From Akkermansia sp. (lineage in GTDB: Bacteria; Verrucomicrobiota; Verrucomicrobiia; Verrucomicrobiales; Akkermansiaceae): DNA of 64,000 bases. Positions 48,085 to 60,265 of the stretch are shown here, one piece after another; position 1 is the first letter of the stretch, and the number at the start of each line of letters is the position of its first letter. The stretch covers positions 6,715-70,714 of the forward strand of contig JAUNHW010000012.1 of the NCBI GenBank assembly GCA_030523775.1, given 5' to 3'. The position numbers were made by a program, and so were the translations under genes. The notes below the pieces were generated by a model. That model was not told the origin of the DNA. It searched no databases and saw only the letters and a program-made list of their open reading frames with translations.

Positions 48085-48101
48085 GCCCAAAGCAGACACC
48101 G

Positions 48102-50792
48102 CTACAGGCCCAGCTCCTCCATGGCCTTCTCTTCCGCCTCCTGCTGCAGGGCATCCGTGTCCACGCCCTCGTACACGCGGTCATCTATGGAGTTGCCCAT
48201 GATGAAGCTCCCTGCCATCATGGGCACGGCGACATCCACGTTCGTGGAGAAATAGCCGCCGCCCAGCTTTTCCCAAGCCAGGCGGGCCACCTCCGGAAGC
48301 AGCTTTTTCTCCCCGGCGGCCAGCCCGGCGAATTCCTTGCCCTTGGCATTCTTGATGCGGTCCAGGTAGGAGCTCGCCACGGCTGCCACCTTCTGAGATT
48401 CCTCCACCAGGGGCTTCTCCTGCAGCTCGTACTCGTAGCAGATTTGCGCCACGCGCTGTTCCGCGTCATCAATGGCGGCATTCCACTGCTCGCGGGGCAT
48501 GGCCTTGATTTGCGGCACCACCTGGTCCGTGTATGCATCTACTTCCTTCCTGCACGCCTTGTACAGGGCGCTGCTCTGCTTTTCAATCTCTGCGCGGCGC
48601 GCCACCAGGGATTCCAGCTTCTTTTCATCCACCACCCGGTGATACAGGCTCTCCACCGCAGCATCACGCTCTTTCTCCTTCTGCGCCCGCACCTCCTTCA
48701 TCTCCCTGCGCAGCGTGTCGCGCGCGCCGTCCTCATCCGGGCTGGCCACGTGCGCCAGGTTTCTGTACGGCTCGATTTCCTCCCTGATGCGCTTCTCAAT
48801 GCCACCGAGCAAATCCCGCTCGTCCTCCGTGACAAATGTGAACTCGGACGACTTCCCGCAGTTGTCGATGATATAGCGGAGGGGATACTCCACCTCCGAG
48901 TGGAAGCGCTCCCGGAAATCGCTCATCTTCTTGCGGTACTCGCGCTCGCACGCCAGGATTTTGCCATCCGTGTCCGACTCTATCTTGGAGACGTCGTCCA
49001 TAGGTGCGGCCTTGGCCTTGGCGATGCCCTCCGCGGCGATGCGGTCCATGGCTTTCAATCCCTCCTCCGGAATGGCCGCATACTCCTTCTTCATCTGCTC
49101 CGCCTTCTGCATGAGCTCCACCATGCCGCTCTGCGCGTGCACCTTTTGGTACAGGGCCTCGGTCATGCGCTCCTTGTCGATTTCACTTTGCCGCTCCTGC
49201 TGCTTGCGTTGGAGATTGCGCTGGCGCCGCTGCTCCTCTGCATGGGCCTCCTTGGTTTCACGGAGCACGCCTCTCAGCGCGCGCTCTTCCTCGTTTTTCA
49301 GCTGGGAGAAATTGTCGGTGGAGTTCAGGCTGTAGAAACTGTAGTTTTCACATTGCCCCACAGCCTTGGAATGCACGCGCGAGGAAACGGCGTGCATGAG
49401 CGCCAGCTTTTCCGCCGTGGAGAGCCCCGGCCAACCCCGGCCGCTTTCCATGGATTCCAGGGCGGCCCGGAAGGGCGTGACGACCTCTCGCTCGTATTGC
49501 TTGTCCAGCTCCTTGAGCTTTTCCTGGCAGGCGGCTGCCAAGCTTTCGAACTCTCTGTCAGCCGGGCTTGAATCCTCAGCCAGCGCCTGATTGCCCCGGC
49601 AGCGCTCCCTGTGCTTGCGGCAATCATCACTGAACTGGCTGGCGAGCTTCGCCCCGTCCGCCTCGAACTGCCTGTTTTTCTCCAGCAGCTTGTCTATCCC
49701 GTAATACTCCCAGGCGCGCTCCGTGAGCGCATCCAGATTCACCTCTCCACCGGCTGTTTCCACCGCGGGCGTTTCCCCGTCATCCCCGCGCGGTGCGGTT
49801 TTCGGCCCCGCCACGCACCAGCCCAGCACGGCGGCGGCCAGCGCGCCGCCCCACAGCAGGAAACGGCGCCGCCGCTTTTGGAGGAACCTGCGCGGTTGGC
49901 GCCTGCCATCCAGCACGGCCAGCCATTCCGCCGCGTTTTGACAGCGTTCCGCGGCGCGCAGCTCCAGGTTGCACATAATACCCGCCGCCAGGTGCGGCGC
50001 GGCCTGCACGCGTTCCGGCTGCAGCTTCTCCAGCGGCACCAGGCTGTCATCCACCATGCGGCGCAGGGTTGTCTCCGGTGCGCAGTTTGAAAAGACCTCG
50101 TACCAGGTGCAGGCCAGGGCGTAGAAATCCGTCCACGGGCCTATTTCCCCCTTGCCGGAGAGTTGCTCCGGCGCGGCGTACGCGGCGGAGAGCGCGCCCT
50201 GCGTGAGCGTGTGCGTGAGGCGGGAAATGTTCACCGCGGAGCCGAAATCCACCAGCACGGGCCGCCCGCTCTCGTCGAACATGATGTTCTCCGGCTTGAT
50301 ATCGCGGTGGATGATACCCTGCGCGTGCATGTGCGCGAGCGCATCCAGCAGCTGGCGCAGCCAATCCTCCACCTGCCCCGCGGGCAGCGGCGCATCCGCA
50401 GCCTCCGCAGTGTCCAGCCGCGCGCGCAGCGTGTCGCCCTCCAGCCAGTGCATCACGCAGAACAGGCTGCCGTGCGCGGCGAACACATCATGCACCTGCA
50501 CGATGTTCGGGTGGTTCAATTTGGCCAGCAGGCGCCCCTCCTTCTGGAGGTCCGCCATGGCCATTATGTACGCATCCTCCAGCTCCGGGCGGGCGGGCAG
50601 GATATGCCCGCTGTCGGCGTCTCTCACGCAGATTTCCTGCGGAAAGCACTCTTTGATGGCCACGTTCCGCTCCAGGGATTTATCCCAGCCCACATAAGTG
50701 ATGCCGAAGCCCCCCTGGCCGCGCGCAGCCAGGATTTTGTACCTGTCGTTGCCGAGGACGGCCCCCGGCGGCAATGCGCTGACCAGTTGCAT
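48102..50792 (-). CDS. Membrane-anchored Hanks-type Ser/Thr kinase with a long helical C-terminal domain
   Basis: GQGGFGITY, VAIKE, HRDIKPEN, DFG, YAAPEQ, DFYAL; basic stretch plus TM FLLWGGALAAAVLGWCVAG. Confidence 0.92.
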   Translation of the reverse strand: MQLVSALPPGAVLGNDRYKILAARGQGGFGITYVGWDKSLERNVAIKECFPQEICVRDADSGHILPARPELEDAYIMAMADLQKEGRLLAKLNHPNIVQVHDVFAAHGSLFCVMHWLEGDTLRARLDTAEAADAPLPAGQVEDWLRQLLDALAHMHAQGIIHRDIKPENIMFDESGRPVLVDFGSAVNISRLTHTLTQGALSAAYAAPEQLSGKGEIGPWTDFYALACTWYEVFSNCAPETTLRRMVDDSLVPLEKLQPERVQAAPHLAAGIMCNLELRAAERCQNAAEWLAVLDGRRQPRRFLQKRRRRFLLWGGALAAAVLGWCVAGPKTAPRGDDGETPAVETAGGEVNLDALTERAWEYYGIDKLLEKNRQFEADGAKLASQFSDDCRKHRERCRGNQALAEDSSPADREFESLAAACQEKLKELDKQYEREVVTPFRAALESMESGRGWPGLSTAEKLALMHAVSSRVHSKAVGQCENYSFYSLNSTDNFSQLKNEEERALRGVLRETKEAHAEEQRRQRNLQRKQQERQSEIDKERMTEALYQKVHAQSGMVELMQKAEQMKKEYAAIPEEGLKAMDRIAAEGIAKAKAAPMDDVSKIESDTDGKILACEREYRKKMSDFRERFHSEVEYPLRYIIDNCGKSSEFTFVTEDERDLLGGIEKRIREEIEPYRNLAHVASPDEDGARDTLRREMKEVRAQKEKERDAAVESLYHRVVDEKKLESLVARRAEIEKQSSALYKACRKEVDAYTDQVVPQIKAMPREQWNAAIDDAEQRVAQICYEYELQEKPLVEESQKVAAVASSYLDRIKNAKGKEFAGLAAGEKKLLPEVARLAWEKLGGGYFSTNVDVAVPMMAGSFIMGNSIDDRVYEGVDTDALQQEAEEKAMEELGL

Positions 50793-50823
50793 GGCCCCAC
50801 CTTTCAAAATGGCGTCACCCGCC

Positions 50824-51189
50824 CTACTCCGCGGGCTTGTCTTCGCTCGCCCCCAGGCGCGGCACCTCGTCCGCCAGGAACTCCGCCAGCGTCTTGCCGC
50901 AGCGGAACGCCTTTTGCTCCAGCGCCTTGCGGGTGGAGGAATCCAGGCTTAGCGTCACCAGTGTCTCCTCCTGCACCTTCACCCGGCTGGGCAGGGAGAG
51001 GGGGAGCTGCTTGATGAGCTCGCGAATGATGTGCTCCTTCGCCGCAGGAATGGGCTTGCGCGCCATCCAGTTGCGAACCGTCGCTTCCGTGACATAGCAC
51101 TTATCCGCCAGCCATGCGTAGTTCATGCCGTTGGCTTTCAGCCAAAGCTTGATGTTGACCTTCAGCTCGTCTTGGTTTGGTGCTTCCAC
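50824..51189 (-). CDS. Putative DNA-binding protein: N-terminal XRE-like HTH plus C-terminal RHH-like segment
   Basis: IKLWLKANGMNYAWLADKCYVTEATVRNWM; VTLSLDSSTRKALEQKAFRCGKTLAEFL. Confidence 0.75.
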   Translation of the reverse strand: MEAPNQDELKVNIKLWLKANGMNYAWLADKCYVTEATVRNWMARKPIPAAKEHIIRELIKQLPLSLPSRVKVQEETLVTLSLDSSTRKALEQKAFRCGKTLAEFLADEVPRLGASEDKPAE

Positions 51190-51196
51190 GCTCAAC

Positions 51197-51225
51197 AGTG
51201 TAGCAATTCTGCCATCATTTTGCAA
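51197..51225 (-). promoter_or_regulatory. Leaderless promoter of the HTH-kinase unit
   Basis: TTGCAA-17-TACACT, 7 nt before GTG 51189. Confidence 0.7.
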
Positions 51226-51275
51226 GAAATTTTACTGGTTTTCACCCATTTTATTTCTTTGATGGCGAAAAAAGG

Positions 51276-51304
51276 TTGACAATGTATCCAAAAACAGGTA
51301 ATTT
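51276..51304 (+). promoter_or_regulatory. Divergent promoter of the Zn-ribbon/Sel1 unit
   Basis: TTGACA-17-TAATTT. Confidence 0.6.
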
Positions 51305-51328
51305 TTGAAGCGTAAAAGCTACTTTGTA

Positions 51329-51835
51329 ATGCCAAACGTATCATTCACCTGCCCCTGCTGCGGCCGCCACCAGCTCATGCGCATTGAGCAGGCCATCCAC
51401 CGCTGCATCCTGCACTTTGCGGCAGACGACAAGGGCGGCATCTCTGCCCAGCCGCTGGACCGCGCGGACGAGCTGCACGGAGAAGTGCTGGGATACCGCT
51501 GCCAGCACTGCCGCTACCCCGACAACCGCAACGCCGACGACGGACCGGATTTCCTGTGGAAAACGCTGGATGACGTGCAGGCAGAGGGCGCCCTGGAGCT
51601 CAGCGACCAGCCGCCGCCGGAGCCGCGGCACTGCATGGTGTGCCACCCGGACGGCCGCCTGGAGCCCCTGGTGGTGGAATCAAAACGCCACGGAAAACTC
51701 ACCCAAACCCAGCGCCGCGCCATCCTGGCCGCCCGCAAGGCCCCCCAGGGCTGCATCCTGCTCTGCGAGCAGGACAAGGGCATCAAGAGCTTCTCCCCCC
51801 AAGACTGGCCCGCCGCGGAACACATGCGGGTGTAA
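51329..51835 (+). CDS. Hypothetical Cys-rich protein, putative zinc ribbon
   Basis: CPCC near the N-terminus, CQHC, CMVC. Confidence 0.7.
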   Translation: MPNVSFTCPCCGRHQLMRIEQAIHRCILHFAADDKGGISAQPLDRADELHGEVLGYRCQHCRYPDNRNADDGPDFLWKTLDDVQAEGALELSDQPPPEPRHCMVCHPDGRLEPLVVESKRHGKLTQTQRRAILAARKAPQGCILLCEQDKGIKSFSPQDWPAAEHMRV

Positions 51836-51855: not shown

Positions 51856-54042
51856 ATGAAAATCCTCCCCATCCTCATCTCCTCCGTCATGGCTCTCAGC
51901 AGTGTCGCGTACGCAGACAAGGCCGTTGCAAACCTCGTCAAGCGCGCCCAGCAGCATGACGTGCCCGCCATGCGCACCCTGGGCATCCGCATGTACAAGG
52001 GAGGCTCTCCCGGCATCCCCACCGACCGCAAGGTGGCCCTCACCTGGCTCAACATGGCGGCCGACCAGAAGGATGAGGTGGCCCTCGTCTTCCTGGGCGA
52101 CATTTATGCCAAGGGATTCCACACTGCCAAGAATGAGCGCAAAGCTGCCAAATTCTACGCGGAGGCCGCCCAACTGGGCAACGACAAGGCTGTGGAGGCC
52201 ATGAACAAGCTGCCCGTCAAATACGCCCTTGAATGGCATGAGAGAAACGCCCAAAAGAAGGACTACGACAGCGCCATTCGCTTGGCTGAATACTACGTGG
52301 ACAAGGGAGATGGGGACGAAGCCCGCAAGAACTTCAAGATTGCCATCCAGGCCAACAGGGACAAGGCCGTGAAGCGCATGGCCAAGAAAGACATGGACAA
52401 GGCGGAAATCTTCTGGCGCGTTCTGGCAGACGACTTCAAGGATGGGGATGCCGCCATGCGCCTGGCAGACGCATACGGTACGGCAGACGGCGCAGCTTCC
52501 AATCCATCGGAAGCCGTCAAGTGGTTGCGCAAAGCTGCAGAGCGCAACCATGCCGAGGCTCAGTTCAGGCTCGGTCAATTATATCTGGCGGGAACAGGTG
52601 TGGACATGAACAGGCTAGAGGCCGCAAAATGGTTCCGCTTGGCCGCCAATCAAGGCCATGAGAATGCAAAAATGGCCCTTGCCAGTTGCTCTGTGACACC
52701 TGAAGTCGCGAAACCGACCGTCCCCGGGGGAAACCATGTTGAACATTTAAGGCCGACAAAAAAACTTGGAGAGGCGGCAGAGGCGCTTCGCATGGCATGG
52801 CGCTACAGGCAGGGTGGAGGAGTGGGCGACGGGCCCAAAGTCATTGAATCGTTCCGCAAGGCCGCCGAGCTGGGCCACCCCCAGGCACAGTACGCACTTG
52901 CATTGAGCCACATGTTCGGTTGGTGCGTGGCAAAAGACAAGCAAGAGGCCGTCAAATGGCTTCGCGAGGCTGCGGATCGCGGATATCTCTTGGCTCCATA
53001 CAAACTTGGCTGTTGCTACTATCTCGGAGAGGGAGTTCCCATGGACAGACAGGAGGCTGAAAGGTGGTTCCGCAAAGCCGCCGAACGGAACGATTTCGAT
53101 GCCCTGGTGTATTTTGAGGCCCATCGTGTAATAACAGACGAAAAGGACAGGGAGACAGATGCCGCCATGTGGTTCGCCACATCCGCGGCGGAGAGTGAAA
53201 GCAACTATCAATTGGTAAGGCAGGCAGAATCCGGAGATGCAAAGGCACAGTTCCTGCTCGGTGGCCGATATTGGAAAGGCGGTGATGTGGGTTTGGACAA
53301 GAGAGAGGCCGCCGGATGGTGGAGCTTGGCAGCCGAACAGGGGAATGCAGATGCCCAATGCTCACTGGCGTTGTATTACTGGGGGAACAATGGCACGGGG
53401 GGAAACCTGCCCGAAGCCGTTTATTGGTTTGGCAAGTCTGCCGAGCAAGGGCATGACATTGCTCAACATTTTCTTGGCCAATGCTACTGGATGGGCAAAG
53501 GCGTGACCATGGACAAGCAGGAGGCTGCCAAATGGTGGCGCAAGGCCGCAGAACAGGGAAACGCCCATTCTCAATTGAGCCTGGGTTTATGTTACCTCAC
53601 CGGACAAGGCGTGACCATGGACAAGCAGGAGGTGTACAAATGGTGGCGGAAGTCCGCAGAACAAGGAAATGCGGATGCCCAATGCGGGATAGGATGCTGT
53701 TTCCATGACGGCGAAGGTGTGCCGAAAGACTATGCAGAGGCCGTTAAGTGGTGGCGCAAGGCCGCAGAACAGGGGCACGCTCAAGCCCAGCGCAATTTGG
53801 CGGAATGCTATTATTGGGGAGACGGTGTGGACCTGGATGAACAAGAAGCAGCCAAATGGTGGAGTAAAGCTGCACAAAACGGAGACGCGAAGGCCCAATT
53901 TTGCCTTGGCAGCTGTTATAAAGCAGGGAAAGGCGTGCGCTCAGACGATCAAGAGGCTGTCAAATGGTGGCGCAAATCGGCTAGCCAAGGCTACGATGAT
54001 GCCATTGATATCCTCAACAAGTTGGGTATCCCCATGGAATAG
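51856..54042 (+). CDS. Secreted Sel1-like repeat protein
   Basis: Signal peptide; many 36-aa AQxxLGxxYxxGxGVxxDxxEAxKWxRKAAEQG units. Confidence 0.93.
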   Translation: MKILPILISSVMALSSVAYADKAVANLVKRAQQHDVPAMRTLGIRMYKGGSPGIPTDRKVALTWLNMAADQKDEVALVFLGDIYAKGFHTAKNERKAAKFYAEAAQLGNDKAVEAMNKLPVKYALEWHERNAQKKDYDSAIRLAEYYVDKGDGDEARKNFKIAIQANRDKAVKRMAKKDMDKAEIFWRVLADDFKDGDAAMRLADAYGTADGAASNPSEAVKWLRKAAERNHAEAQFRLGQLYLAGTGVDMNRLEAAKWFRLAANQGHENAKMALASCSVTPEVAKPTVPGGNHVEHLRPTKKLGEAAEALRMAWRYRQGGGVGDGPKVIESFRKAAELGHPQAQYALALSHMFGWCVAKDKQEAVKWLREAADRGYLLAPYKLGCCYYLGEGVPMDRQEAERWFRKAAERNDFDALVYFEAHRVITDEKDRETDAAMWFATSAAESESNYQLVRQAESGDAKAQFLLGGRYWKGGDVGLDKREAAGWWSLAAEQGNADAQCSLALYYWGNNGTGGNLPEAVYWFGKSAEQGHDIAQHFLGQCYWMGKGVTMDKQEAAKWWRKAAEQGNAHSQLSLGLCYLTGQGVTMDKQEVYKWWRKSAEQGNADAQCGIGCCFHDGEGVPKDYAEAVKWWRKAAEQGHAQAQRNLAECYYWGDGVDLDEQEAAKWWSKAAQNGDAKAQFCLGSCYKAGKGVRSDDQEAVKWWRKSASQGYDDAIDILNKLGIPME

Positions 54043-54081
54043 CATCCCACATGGCATAGGGCATTTTACTTGAAAGAAACC

Positions 54082-54258
54082 ATGACAAATCTTATACAAG
54101 ACTATTGGGCCATGTCGCCGCTGGCGGCGGTGGGGCTGGTGTTGCTGATATGCTGCCATTTGGGCAGGTGGAAAGGCGGCCTGAAGGTTGCCGGCAACGT
54201 TGTGGGCTGGGCGCTGGTGCTTATCGGTATCGGCAGTTTCCTGGGTTCGCTGGTGTGA
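54082..54258 (+). CDS. Small two-TM membrane protein (58 aa)
   Basis: Two hydrophobic segments separated by GRWKGGLK. Confidence 0.6.
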   Translation: MTNLIQDYWAMSPLAAVGLVLLICCHLGRWKGGLKVAGNVVGWALVLIGIGSFLGSLV

Positions 54259-54307
54259 GATAGAAGTTGACAGGGAAACACTCTTGGGGTTCAATGGAGA
54301 CTTGAAC

Positions 54308-54736
54308 ATGAAAGCGATTGCATCCTTGACATTGGCGGCCGCGCTGTGCGGCGGGGCGTGGGCGCAGCAGGGGAGCGCGTACACCACGCCGGGGGGAACC
54401 ACGCATTACACGGGACCGAACGGCTACCACGGCTCCTCCTACACCACACCGGGCGGCACCACACACTACCAGGACAACCGCGGCACGCGCGGCAGCTCCT
54501 ACACCTCGCCGGGCGGCTCCTCACATTAGACGGACAACAAGGGCTCGCTCGGCTCCTCGTACACCACGCCGGGCGGTACCACGCACTATACGGACAACAA
54601 GGGGCGCAGCGTCACCTCGTACACCACGCCCGGCGGCACCACCCACTACCGCGACAACCAGGGCCGCACGGGCACCTCGTACACCACGCCCGGCGGCACC
54701 ACGCATTACAGCGGGAACTTTTTCGACAAGAAGTAA
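54308..54736 (+). pseudogene. Secreted 20-aa-repeat protein interrupted by an in-frame TAG at 54527-54529
   Basis: Signal peptide then six SYTTPGGTTHY units; the frame continues past TAG to TAA 54734-54736; upstream TTGACA-17-TTCAAT. Confidence 0.8.
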
Positions 54737-54748
54737 GTAGCCTGCGGG

Positions 54749-55129
54749 TTATGGCAGGCGCTTTTCCTCCTCCGCCTGTTGGGGCGGGGTGCAGTTGCGC
54801 ATGGGGCGCTCCTGCGGGGCTTCGTCATTCGGCAAATTGTCTGCGCGGCGGTGCGCGGCGGATGCGATGAGGGCCACGGCGATGCCGAGCACGCCTATGT
54901 CGTCCAGCCAGCCGACAATGGGCATGAGATCCGGCAGGAAATCCACGGGCCACACGGCGTAGAGGATGGCGAGCACGGCAATGATGATGTTGCGCGGGGT
55001 GAGGAGATTCCCCTTCATGTGCTGCGTGCCCGCGCCCGCACGCTGCCCTGCGGGCTTGCCGCGGAACAGGCGCGCCAGCAGCTCGGGAATCGCCAGCAGG
55101 CATCCTGCCTTCTCGGGTGTTGCGCTCAT
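54749..55129 (-). CDS. YkvA/DUF1232-family membrane protein
   Basis: YAVWPVDFLPDLMPIVGWLDD. Confidence 0.85.
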   Translation of the reverse strand: MSATPEKAGCLLAIPELLARLFRGKPAGQRAGAGTQHMKGNLLTPRNIIIAVLAILYAVWPVDFLPDLMPIVGWLDDIGVLGIAVALIASAAHRRADNLPNDEAPQERPMRNCTPPQQAEEEKRLP

Positions 55130-55307
55130 GGGTTCAGTGTATACACCCCCTGCCCCGCATGGCAACACCAAACCGCGGCTGCTGCGTCATGGTGCCGTGA
55201 AACGCACCCTGCAAGCCAGTGAAAAAAGCCTCGTGTAGTCTTGGAATTCGCGCCAGGAGGATAATTGTCCTATAATTTGTTGGGTTTCAACGCACAGTAA
55301 ACACTCC

Positions 55308-55396
55308 CTGCCATTTTTATGTAGGAGATTCAACCGTATTCTGCCACTTTTATGTAGGAGATTGGGGCACATTCTGCCATTTTTCTGTAGGAGATT
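55308..55396. repeat. Three 23-bp direct repeats with a 33-bp period
   Basis: CTGCCATTTTTATGTAGGAGATT at 55308, 55341 and 55374 (1 mismatch each in copies 2 and 3). Confidence 0.9.
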
Positions 55397-55413
55397 TGAG
55401 CGCGAAGCGACTC

Positions 55414-55447
55414 AAAAACGCCCCGCTTGGTCCATGACCAAGCGGGG
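55414..55447 (-). terminator. Terminator of the gcv operon
   Basis: CCCCGCTTGGTC-CAT-GACCAAGCGGGG 12-bp stem; T5 tail on the minus strand. Confidence 0.8.
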
Positions 55448-55499
55448 TGTGTCATTCTCGCGCGGCGAACGCCGCGCCTAACTTACAAAATCGTCAATT

Positions 55500-55567
55500 G
55501 CCTGTCTCGGCGTTTTATCTCGGCGTAGCCCCACCGGGGCGTAGACGGAAGCTTTGCGAAGACGGAT
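55500..55567 (+). repeat. Nested REP-like element (one unit inside another)
   Basis: GCCTGTCTCGGCG[TTTTATCTCGGCGTAGCCCCACCGGGGCGTAGACGG]AAGCTTTGCGAAGACGGAT. Confidence 0.75.
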
Positions 55568-55575
55568 AAATTACT

Positions 55576-58410
<2,835 letters not shown>

Positions 58411-58500
58411 AATTTATTGAATATCAGTTAGTTATATTTTGTGAAAAGACAAGCATGCGGTCACACGCCGGGTGGGCATGCGACCGCATGGAAGTGGGGT

Positions 58501-58884
58501 TTACTTGCAGAATTCCTCGTAGGCGGCAGCGTCCATGAGCTCATCGAGCTCGGCGGGGTCGCTGATGCGGACCTTGCAGATCCAGCCGGCGCCGTTGGCA
58601 TCCGCATTCACGGTGGCGGGCTCTGCGTCCAGCACCTCGTTCACCTCCACCACCTCGCCGGAGACGGGGGTGTACACGTCGGAAGCGGCCTTCACGGACT
58701 CCACGGCGGCGATGTTGTCGCCCTTGGAGAAGGAGTCGCCCACGGCGGGGAGGTCCACGTACACGATGTCGCCCAGCTCAGACTGAGCGTGGTCGGTGAT
58801 GCCGAGGGTCACGATGCCGTCAACGACGGGGCTGACCCATTCGTGCTCGGAGGAATACTTGTAATCAGCGGGGATTGCACTCAT
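58501..58884 (-). CDS. gcvH: Glycine cleavage H protein
   Basis: HEW, GITDHAQ, ESVKAASD. Confidence 0.97.
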   Translation of the reverse strand: MSAIPADYKYSSEHEWVSPVVDGIVTLGITDHAQSELGDIVYVDLPAVGDSFSKGDNIAAVESVKAASDVYTPVSGEVVEVNEVLDAEPATVNADANGAGWICKVRISDPAELDELMDAAAYEEFCK

Positions 58885-58905
58885 GGTTGTAATTAGGTTT
58901 GGGGT

Positions 58906-59988
58906 TTACTTCTTGAGGAAGGGTTTCTTGATGATGACGGCGGGGACGGGCTTGTTGCGGACGATGACGTTCACCTCCGTGCCGATCTTGCCGAGGGCGG
59001 TGGGAACGTATGCCATGGCAATGCCCTTGCCGAGGGTGGGGGAAAGCACGCCGCTGCAGAGCTCGCCCAGGTGCGTGCCGTCCGGCAGCTGCACCTCGTA
59101 GCCGTGGCGGGGCGGGGCGCCCTTGCCCGTGTACTCGATGGCCACCAGCGCGGTGGGGCGGCCCTCCGCCTTCTGCTGGCGCAGCACCTCCACGCCGATG
59201 AAGTCCTTCGTGAGGTCGCAGCACCAGGAGAGTCCGGCCTCCAGCGGGGTCTTCTCCGGGGAGAGGTCGCTGCCGTTCAGGGAGTAGCACATCTCCAGGC
59301 GCAGGCTGTCGCGCGCGCCCAGGCCGCAGGGCTTGGCGCCGCTGGCAATGACCTTCTCCAGCCACTTCACGCCCTCTGCCGCCGGGCAGAAGAACTCGAA
59401 GCCGTTCTCACCGGTGTACCCGGTGCGGCAGACGTAGAGCTCGTCGCCGTCGCAGCTGAACTTGAGGATGCCGTTGCGCTCCGGCAGCACAATGCCCGGG
59501 CACATGCCCGCGAAAACTTTTTCACAGTTGGGCCCCTGCACGGCCAGGCCCACGAAATCCGCGCTCTTGTTGACGAGCGAGACGCCCTCCGGCTTGTGCG
59601 CGGTGAGCCAGGCGTAGTCCTCGTCAATCATGGAGGCGTTCACCACAATGAAGTAGTTGTCCTCGCCCATGCGGTAGATGATGAGGTCGTCGATGACGCC
59701 GCCGCGCTCGTTGAGCATCATGGAGTACTGGCCCACGCCGTCCGTGAGCTTGTGCAGGTTGTTGGTGAACATGCCGTTCAACCACTCCGTGGTGCCCGGG
59801 CCGTAGGCCAGGAACTGCCCCATGTGGGAGATGTCGAACACGCCGCAATCGTTGCGAACGGCGTTGTGCTCATCAATGATTCCCGTGTACTGCACGGGCA
59901 TGTTCCAACCGGCAAACGGCACCATCTTGGCACCCAGAGCCACATGCTTTTCGCACAAAGGCGTGCATTTAATCTGTTCTTCGCTCAT
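58906..59988 (-). CDS. gcvT: Aminomethyltransferase (T protein)
   Basis: FAGWNMPVQY, FDISHMG, RTGYTGENGFE, GLGARDSLRLE. Confidence 0.96.
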   Translation of the reverse strand: MSEEQIKCTPLCEKHVALGAKMVPFAGWNMPVQYTGIIDEHNAVRNDCGVFDISHMGQFLAYGPGTTEWLNGMFTNNLHKLTDGVGQYSMMLNERGGVIDDLIIYRMGEDNYFIVVNASMIDEDYAWLTAHKPEGVSLVNKSADFVGLAVQGPNCEKVFAGMCPGIVLPERNGILKFSCDGDELYVCRTGYTGENGFEFFCPAAEGVKWLEKVIASGAKPCGLGARDSLRLEMCYSLNGSDLSPEKTPLEAGLSWCCDLTKDFIGVEVLRQQKAEGRPTALVAIEYTGKGAPPRHGYEVQLPDGTHLGELCSGVLSPTLGKGIAMAYVPTALGKIGTEVNVIVRNKPVPAVIIKKPFLKK

Positions 59989-59998
59989 GTTACCATCC

Positions 59999-60027
59999 AC
60001 TATAAGCCCCCCGCCCCGCCGAGTCAA
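59999..60027 (-). promoter_or_regulatory. Promoter of gcvTHP
   Basis: TTGACT-17-TATAGT, 10 nt before ATG 59988. Confidence 0.8.
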
Positions 60028-60265
60028 GCAATATCCCGCACCTTTCCGAGAAAATTCCCATTCCCCCAACACCCGGAGATAGATGAACGCGAGACGCCAT
60101 CCACCCCGCAGTGCGGGATTCGGCGGCGAGACGTGCTTCCAGCCGTCGGGCGTATTGTAAATCCCTTGTCCTGCGGAAGTTGAAAAGAGGGATGCGCCTA
60201 GCCGGAAAACCGAGGAAACCGCAAAAAAACGCTTGACAACTTGGCCATTTGTGTTTTAATGGCGG

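Follow-up and report, generated by a model that had tools for sequence, protein, structure and literature searches.

The three-box repeat array beside gcvP in this Akkermansia genome is probably an orphan member of the class of box arrays, phased at 32-33 bp, that stand at the promoters of AAA_14+DUF4143 (PDC-S01) genes. The array of the window (the whole stretch of 64,000 nucleotides that was analysed) shares with these promoter arrays a period of 33 bp and a CAYTTTT arm, and the centre TAGGA of its boxes fits the ..CCTAGGAAAA.. type of family box. The array was classed as an orphan because no ATPase gene stands 3' of it; when the four ATPase paralogues of the genome were compared with the window by tblastn, neither a gene nor a remnant was found near the array. 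An initial annotation of the locus had proposed phased, iteron-like sites of the protein-bound kind, and the period and arm shared with the AAA_14/DUF4143 arrays support this proposal at the level of sequence. In the following, this genome is referred to as G000, the related genomes as G002, G108 (the Horse_feces184 MAG), G110 and G144, and a metagenome contig as L142. The coordinates of all features are collated in Table 1.

Table 1. Features of the array and its surroundings in the window, and of related sites elsewhere in the same genome.
Feature	Position	Strand	Remark
Kinase/HTH/Zn-ribbon block	48100-51835		In 6/6 close relatives, with or without array
HTH gene	50824-51225		In 6/6 close relatives regardless of array
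Box-like sequence ATTCTGCCATCATTTTGCAAGAAATT	51206-51231		In the spacer of the leftward HTH promoter; 20/26 positions match the box
YTTPGG/DUF1232 block	54078-55200		In 6/6 close relatives
Secreted protein gene	54308-54736		60-bp (20-aa, YTTPGGTTHY) tandem repeats
DUF1232 (YkvA-like) gene	54749-55129	-	Left neighbour of the array
DUF1232 promoter, TTGCCA-18-TACACT	55136-55165	-	Kept in relatives without array
108-bp stretch unique to this genome	55200-55307		Separates the array from the conserved DUF1232 promoter region
CAGGAGG	55253-55259
TATAAT	55271-55276		Inside the 108-bp stretch, 32 nt upstream of the array; no usable -35
Box 1, CTGCCATTTTTATGTAGGAGATT	55308-55330	+	Left arm GCCATTTTT fits the CAYTTTT half-site of PDC-S01 arrays
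Box 2, CTGCCACTTTTATGTAGGAGATT	55341-55363	+	With ATT prefix 55338-55363, ATTCTGCCACTTTTATGTAGGAGATT
Box 3, CTGCCATTTTTCTGTAGGAGATT	55374-55396	+	With ATT prefix 55371-55396
-35-like hexamer TTGAGC	55396-55401	+	Directly after box 3, at the offset where TTGACA follows the homologous C19 box
Small hairpin TTGAGCGCGAAGCGACTCAA	55396-55415		At the gcvP terminator junction
Dispersed repeats	55413-55500 and 55500-55566		From the array to the gcvP stop codon
Intrinsic terminator of gcvTHP	55421-55447	-	12-bp stem, then CGTTTTTGAG on the minus strand
gcvP	55576-58410	-	Right neighbour, convergent with the array direction
gcvT-gcvH-gcvP	55576-60072	-	Ends in the strong terminator 55421-55447
Promoter-proximal C19 box, ATTCTGCCATTTTTTCGAAGGAAAGC	C19:14178		20/26 match to the 26-mer
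C19 ATPase gene	C19:14253-15572		440 aa
Second orphan array of this genome	C14:42728-42813		33-bp period, 2.6 copies

The repeat array and its surroundings

The boxes follow the consensus CTGCCA(T/C)TTTT(A/C)TGTAGGAGATT (23 bp, three copies, 33 + 33 bp from start to start), with a box-to-box identity of 22/23. The three 23-bp repeats and their exact 33-bp period, as initially described, were confirmed by their coordinates (55308-55396), by TRF (period 33, 2.7 copies, score 122) and by 100 dinucleotide-preserving shuffles, which gave 0.00 expected occurrences of the 23-mer with up to three mismatches, compared with three in the window. With the same number of mismatches allowed, the unit was not found elsewhere in the 2.33-Mb genome (99.5% complete). 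The two 10-nt spacers, the TATAAT and the fourth CAGGAGG were likewise present as described. The spacers, CAACCGTATT and GGGGCACATT, are unrelated to each other except for a shared terminal ATT; since this triplet ends both, units 2 and 3 are really a 26-bp repeat with a 7-bp variable spacer. Arms of the form CA[CT][TA]TTT occur three times in the array, all forward, at 55312, 55345 and 55378. A reverse (inverted) arm was not found in the window boxes, which are therefore not palindromes, and their right arm GGAGATT is degenerate. The array thus consists of direct repeats of an asymmetric unit, is intergenic and is phased at three helical turns.

Its placement at the right edge of an accessory block was only roughly right. 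Homology to the relatives stops near 55200 on the DUF1232 side, and on the gcvP side it stops at 55419 in most relatives and at about 55305 in one species; the array consequently sits in a 220-bp junction between two conserved blocks. In relatives without the array the DUF1232 gene is divergent from aroK and not adjacent to gcvP. On the plus strand, neither a -10 element nor a gene was found 3' of the TTGAGC hexamer that follows box 3; the gcvP terminator stands there instead. The hexamer may be a promoter remnant, judged by its sequence and offset. It also forms one arm of the small hairpin, the outer stem of which is conserved in Horse_feces184 while the interior differs, and its likeness to a -35 element could be coincidental.

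Several minor observations were made in this region. The -10 element of the DUF1232 promoter lies about 10 nt before the ATG, so that a near-leaderless mRNA is indicated (relatives checked: L143-L146). The dispersed repeats between the array and the gcvP stop codon have several copies in this genome and many in G002; the one at 55500-55566 is missing at the gcvP spot in G002 and Horse_feces184. The gene for the secreted protein carries an in-frame TAG at about 54527-54529, where the other YTTPGGTTHY units have TAC or TAT, and intact repeats continue beyond it in frame.

Binding of the array by some other regulator, unrelated to the ATPase family, was considered in the form of a DUF1232 activator array or a centromere-like or iteron site. 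Intergenic direct repeats phased at three helical turns would suit such a site, and ATTCTGCCATC is present in the promoter spacer of the conserved HTH gene. The DUF1232 promoter, however, is also kept in relatives without an array, and the array therefore has no part in the control of DUF1232. Moreover, the neighbours of the arrays differ by context (a DUF1232 or EF-hand gene as opposed to an SNF2 gene). The HTH gene, the protein of which (annotated at 50824-51189) had been suggested as a partner for DNA pull-down, is present with or without the array and shows no co-variation with it, and G110 combines the array with another HTH spacer. Neither rep nor par genes were found nearby, and there was no GC-skew switch and no phage or plasmid match. 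As the period, the half-site and the best genomic match all point to the ATPase arrays, we regard another regulator as improbable. The box-like sequence in the HTH promoter spacer may be a chance occurrence or a shared operator word; its core AATTCTGCCATC was found in 5/7 relatives and is replaced in G110 and G002.

The following candidates were rejected: an origin or terminus (the cumulative GC skew rises through the locus without a switch); a dif site (on inspection, the unit has no dif dyad symmetry); a transposon end or att site (inverted copies are lacking, the array has neither an integrase nor a transposase next to it, and in G110 and G144 it stands between two core genes without cargo); a dispersed repeat of the MITE or REP kind (the array is one locus per genome); a phage or plasmid origin (no blastn match in phage and plasmid collections and none in viral contigs); an operator of the DUF1232 or HTH protein (both are conserved without the array); and a sigma-70, sigma-54 or ECF promoter inside each unit (none fits by inspection and promoter scan). 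In type III toxin-antitoxin systems, the tandem ToxI repeats of about 36 nt are followed by a terminator and then a toxN-like gene. A ToxI-like array was also rejected, since no plus-strand gene follows the window array and, in contrast to processed ToxI units, its spacers vary.

A small non-coding RNA or 5' leader, acting through its U-tracts and Shine-Dalgarno-like GGAG as a sponge in the CsrB/RsmZ manner, had been hinted at in the initial annotation by reference to the repeated GGA motifs of CsrB-type RNAs. In accordance with such an RNA, AGGAG or GGAGG follows the U-tract in every unit, and the array is preceded by TATAAT and followed in the window by a strong hairpin. The TATAAT is, however, without a usable -35, and no terminator follows the array in G110 and G144. 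CsrA (PF02599) was absent according to tblastn and a whole-genome Pfam search for which the controls E. coli, B. subtilis and Thermotoga were positive, and the genome gave no convincing Hfq in tblastn and Pfam searches. An Rfam scan of 54000-57000 with E up to 10 returned no match on the array (a sroE-like match with E = 0.06 covers the terminator region). RNAalifold of the aligned units gave no consensus pairs, and folding z-scores were near 0 (-0.03 to +1.8; both strands, window and G110 arrays, terminator excluded). The hairpins of CsrB and RsmZ thus have no counterpart here, and in the paralogous arrays the place of the GGAG is taken by the centre and right arm (..GGAAAA..) of DNA palindromes. 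We consider an RNA sponge very improbable.

A peptide with 11-residue repeats had been named as a finding that would speak against binding sites. The period equals 11 codons, the frame CHFYVGD... is open across four arrays, and an ATG is available in G110 and G144. There is no start codon in the window or in Horse_feces184, however, the ATG lacks a Shine-Dalgarno sequence, and the ends are inconsistent. Two frames are open without a consistent start, neither gave a Pfam match, and on inspection the repeat frame has mostly A/T at its third codon positions, compared with a GC3 of about 0.85 in the genes of the genome. A coding function is hardly credible.

The C19 gene and the box arrays of its family

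The whole genome was searched for the 26-mer with up to seven mismatches, and only two sites were found outside the array. One of them is the C19:14178 box, the first 14 bases of which (the left arm, ATTCTGCCATTTTT) are identical to box 3. It directly abuts the TTGACA-17-TAGGAT promoter of an ATPase gene, and another box, TTGCCACTTTTTCCCATGGAAAAGTGTGG, this one palindromic, precedes it by 33 bp. The promoter-proximal box is one-armed, as the window boxes are; palindromy is therefore typical of PDC-S01 arrays and not universal. From the homology to the C19 boxes and the offset of TTGAGC it follows that the window array points right, on the plus strand, towards gcvP. The opposite, minus-strand direction had been proposed initially, with the array leading into IIGQLSSWRE as a possible ATPase start; this peptide belongs to a minus-strand ORF that has no Pfam match even at E = 10. 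The accompanying suggestion, a control region of a deleted AAA_14/DUF4143 gene, survived as an idea, since the arrays of the family and a G002 locus with a missing cassette and retained boxes speak for it; the strand and peptide evidence offered for it did not.

The C19 gene product is an AAA_14+DUF4143 protein that matches PADLOC PDC-S01 with E = 1e-159. PDC-S01, an ATPase fused to PD-(D/E)XK, is reported to rank fourth in frequency among the candidate defence genes of prokaryotes and is functionally unvalidated (PMC12988326); of DUF4143, only its membership of the PD-(D/E)XK superfamily is known (PMC3424549). The protein has more than 8000 homologues. An AlphaFold2 model of the C19 protein was built from 64 aligned homologues (mean pLDDT 91.6). 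The best PDB folds were the Pyrococcus Walker-type ATPase PAB2304, Aeropyrum ORC2/Cdc6 and eukaryotic ORC subunits. Beyond the AAA+ core, helices span 232-250 and 267-279 and are followed by strands at 283-289 and 300-309; this region is probably a winged helix. The C-terminus reads EVDFV...LEVK, consistent with DUF4143 in the PD-(D/E)XK superfamily. The protein accordingly models as an Orc1/Cdc6-like AAA+ ATPase with a winged helix and a PD-(D/E)XK nuclease domain.

Paralogues recognised by the N-terminus of the C19 ATPase occur in 89/154 Akkermansia genomes, with up to eight per genome. The 200 nt upstream of 31 sampled Akkermansia copies were scored for direct repeats at lags of 26-41, together with 1102 control upstream regions. 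The best direct repeat fell at lag 32 or 33 in all 31 family regions, and at least 18/22 matches were reached in 28/31 of them versus 11/1102 controls (1.0%). The generality of the array rule was tested on plasmid and metagenome copies: among 11 homologues outside the genus, ten have a direct repeat at lag 32-33, which is the best lag in eight. These ten comprise copies on plasmids of Collinsella, Segatella, Vibrio, Acinetobacter, Criblamydia, Vescimonas and Agathobacter, and three metagenome or MAG loci; the Vescimonas copy and one MAG locus gave a higher or equal score at lags 42 and 65. The eleventh homologue, on a Bacteroides plasmid, is preceded by two boxes at a spacing of 66 bp. The half-site CA[CT][TA]TTT or its reverse complement was present at least twice in 30/42 family upstream regions, compared with 10/1102 controls. 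No ATPase homologue was detected at E = 1e-15 in 16 genomes of other Verrucomicrobiales families.

Arrays of the family consist of two to five boxes spaced three helical turns apart and placed immediately upstream of the -35 element of the gene. The boxes are usually palindromes (CACTTTT...AAAAGTG), typical units being TTGCCAYTTTTATC..GATAAAATGTG or ..TTTTTCCTAGGAAAAATGTG.., and the palindromes end at the -35. Each non-Akkermansia copy has different flanking genes, which leaves the ATPase as the only constant neighbour across phyla. Because it is this sole conserved neighbour and because its predicted fold is Orc1/Cdc6-like with a winged helix, the encoded ATPase is most likely the binder of its own boxes. 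A literature search found no published description of upstream arrays of AAA_14+DUF4143, COG1373 or PDC-S01 genes, and no report of protein binding to any PDC-S01-type box array.

Orphan arrays and constraint among the relatives

The unit was sought in 154 species of Akkermansia (GTDB sense) by pattern matching and by a covariance model of sequence alone, for which 12 units were used, a search in related genomes that the initial annotation had recommended. It was present in four of them, at a single locus each, and none of these arrays, at gcvP or between rplI and SNF2, is followed by an ATPase gene. The three boxes of G000 stand beside the gcvP terminator, and the same spot in Horse_feces184 has one box (L054:593-615), orthologous to box 3. 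G110 has five boxes, flanked by the rplI terminator on one side and the promoter of an SNF2 helicase gene on the other, and G144 has three in the same context; the array of L142 is like that of G110. Judged by SNF2 identity, G108, G110, G144 and G002 form a clade at 94-96%, with G000 at 92%; G002 is without this array. This distribution implies that the array exists at two loci and was lost once within a small clade. The SNF2 promoter, TTGAG(T/A)-17-TAGAAT, is intact in genomes without the array. In this clade, 7-nt microsatellites of the form (C/T)GTAAAT or TGTAGAT also recur intergenically (L092, L093 and L094, 3' of gcvP in G144, G110 and G002; L144, upstream of aroK).

The window array could be a pure fossil of a lost ATPase promoter, functionless, and either young or homogenised by recombination between its units. 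In favour of a fossil, the array is not followed by a gene, its right arms are degenerate, only 4/154 species carry it, and its copy number (1, 3, 3 and 5) changes by whole units, including a 66-bp (two-unit) indel between G110 and G144. Several observations weigh against a fossil. The boxes are near-identical although the intervening spacers are unrelated, and adjacent boxes of these arrays are separated in all ten cases by exactly 10 bp, although the spacer sequences have diverged. Between G110 and L142, the boxes and the 47-nt leader differ at 0/162 positions, compared with 18/159 at the adjacent rplI third codon positions (Fisher p = 2e-6); the spacers show 3/50 differences, and the rplI 3' UTR/terminator has several substitutions and indels in the alignment in which boxes and leader stay conserved. 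The related orphan arrays in G110, L142 and G144 are thus shown to be under sequence constraint. A functionless remnant is on balance unlikely.

Orphan arrays are not rare in the clade. When the C19 locus of G000 was compared with its counterpart in G002, a 1375-bp segment comprising promoter and gene (C19:14203-15577) was absent from G002, with flanks 94% and 93% identical, and both boxes were retained as an orphan (G002:C24:25737-25779, L205). A second G002 orphan (G002:C61:31233-31295, L221) consists of two palindromic boxes without an ATPase gene within 1.5 kb. G000 likewise has a second orphan, at C14, a 33-bp array (CACGTTTTTCGGGGGAACTTTTGCC..) between convergent genes, the boxes of which resemble those of the CGGAGGGAG type in G110. 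The C19 locus of G002 shows one route by which orphans can arise, namely absence of the promoter-plus-gene cassette with the boxes kept.

Proposed role and comparison with known systems

On the reading of the window array as an orphan PDC-S01 array, the boxes would be docking sites of the family's own ATPase on one face of the DNA, and the docked ATPase would serve for self-control of its promoter or for assembly of an oligomer. The window array would have been left after loss of a promoter-plus-gene cassette, or would be an empty site. By analogy with the C19/G002 case, an ATPase gene may once have followed it, although none of the relatives was found to carry an ATPase gene at either place, beside gcvP or between rplI and SNF2. 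The array may still be bound in trans. If anything still binds it, the C19 ATPase would be the candidate, since the 14-nt left arm is identical to that of the C19 proximal box. The resident C19 orthologue of G110 and G144 has boxes of another type (TTGGCAAY...) than the orphan arrays there (CTGCCAY...), so that in these genomes a trans binder is not obvious. A bolder version was also considered, in which the box arrays, beyond acting as operators, would serve a selfish cassette of a single gene as its address. The boxes phased at 33 bp would be recognised by the ATPase-nuclease they belong to, promoter and gene would be gained or lost precisely beside them by homing or nuclease-provoked recombination, and the orphans would be empty but still recognisable landing or decoy sites, kept by selection and marking synteny breakpoints. 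We rate this version as rather improbable.

Compared with the PDC-S01 promoter arrays, the window array has the same 33-bp period and CAYTTTT arm, a copy number within the range of two to five and a position just after a neighbour's terminator, and the hexamer after its last box may correspond to their -35; it differs in lacking the ATPase gene and in being built of asymmetric direct repeats, and these non-palindromic boxes set it apart from most boxes of the family. Archaeal Orc1/Cdc6 proteins have origin recognition boxes (ORBs) next to their own gene. The PDC-S01 proteins resemble them in the predicted initiator-fold AAA+ with winged helix, encoded beside repeated boxes as the putative ligand; they differ in the PD-(D/E)XK domain and in having their arrays on a promoter, and the locus gave no evidence of replication initiation and no GC-skew switch. 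Plasmid iterons (F, P1, R6K, pSC101, RK2) are also short direct repeats in helical phase, and they adjoin and control the gene of the Rep protein that binds them; extra iteron arrays titrate or handcuff in trans. The window array, in contrast, is chromosomal and single-locus, without plasmid or phage match, and has no replicon, Rep fold, AT-rich unwinding element or DnaA boxes.

A phased box array at PDC-S01 promoters provides a handle on an unvalidated defence candidate, as it predicts the DNA ligand of the protein. The window adds an orphan case with persisting boxes, copy changes by whole units and two loci in sister species, and accounts for an odd AT-rich repeat next to gcvP without a new RNA or origin. 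Together with the polymorphism of filled and empty cassettes beside retained boxes, this allows decoy or titration sites acting in trans to be told apart from targets for gain and loss of the gene. The non-Akkermansia PDC-S01 copies in L191 (NCBI JAXERL010000039.1) and L193 have as neighbours restriction-modification genes (MmeI-type methylase, type I HsdR), an integrase and another AAA ATPase (ATPase_2 + DUF234), as would fit a defence-island setting.
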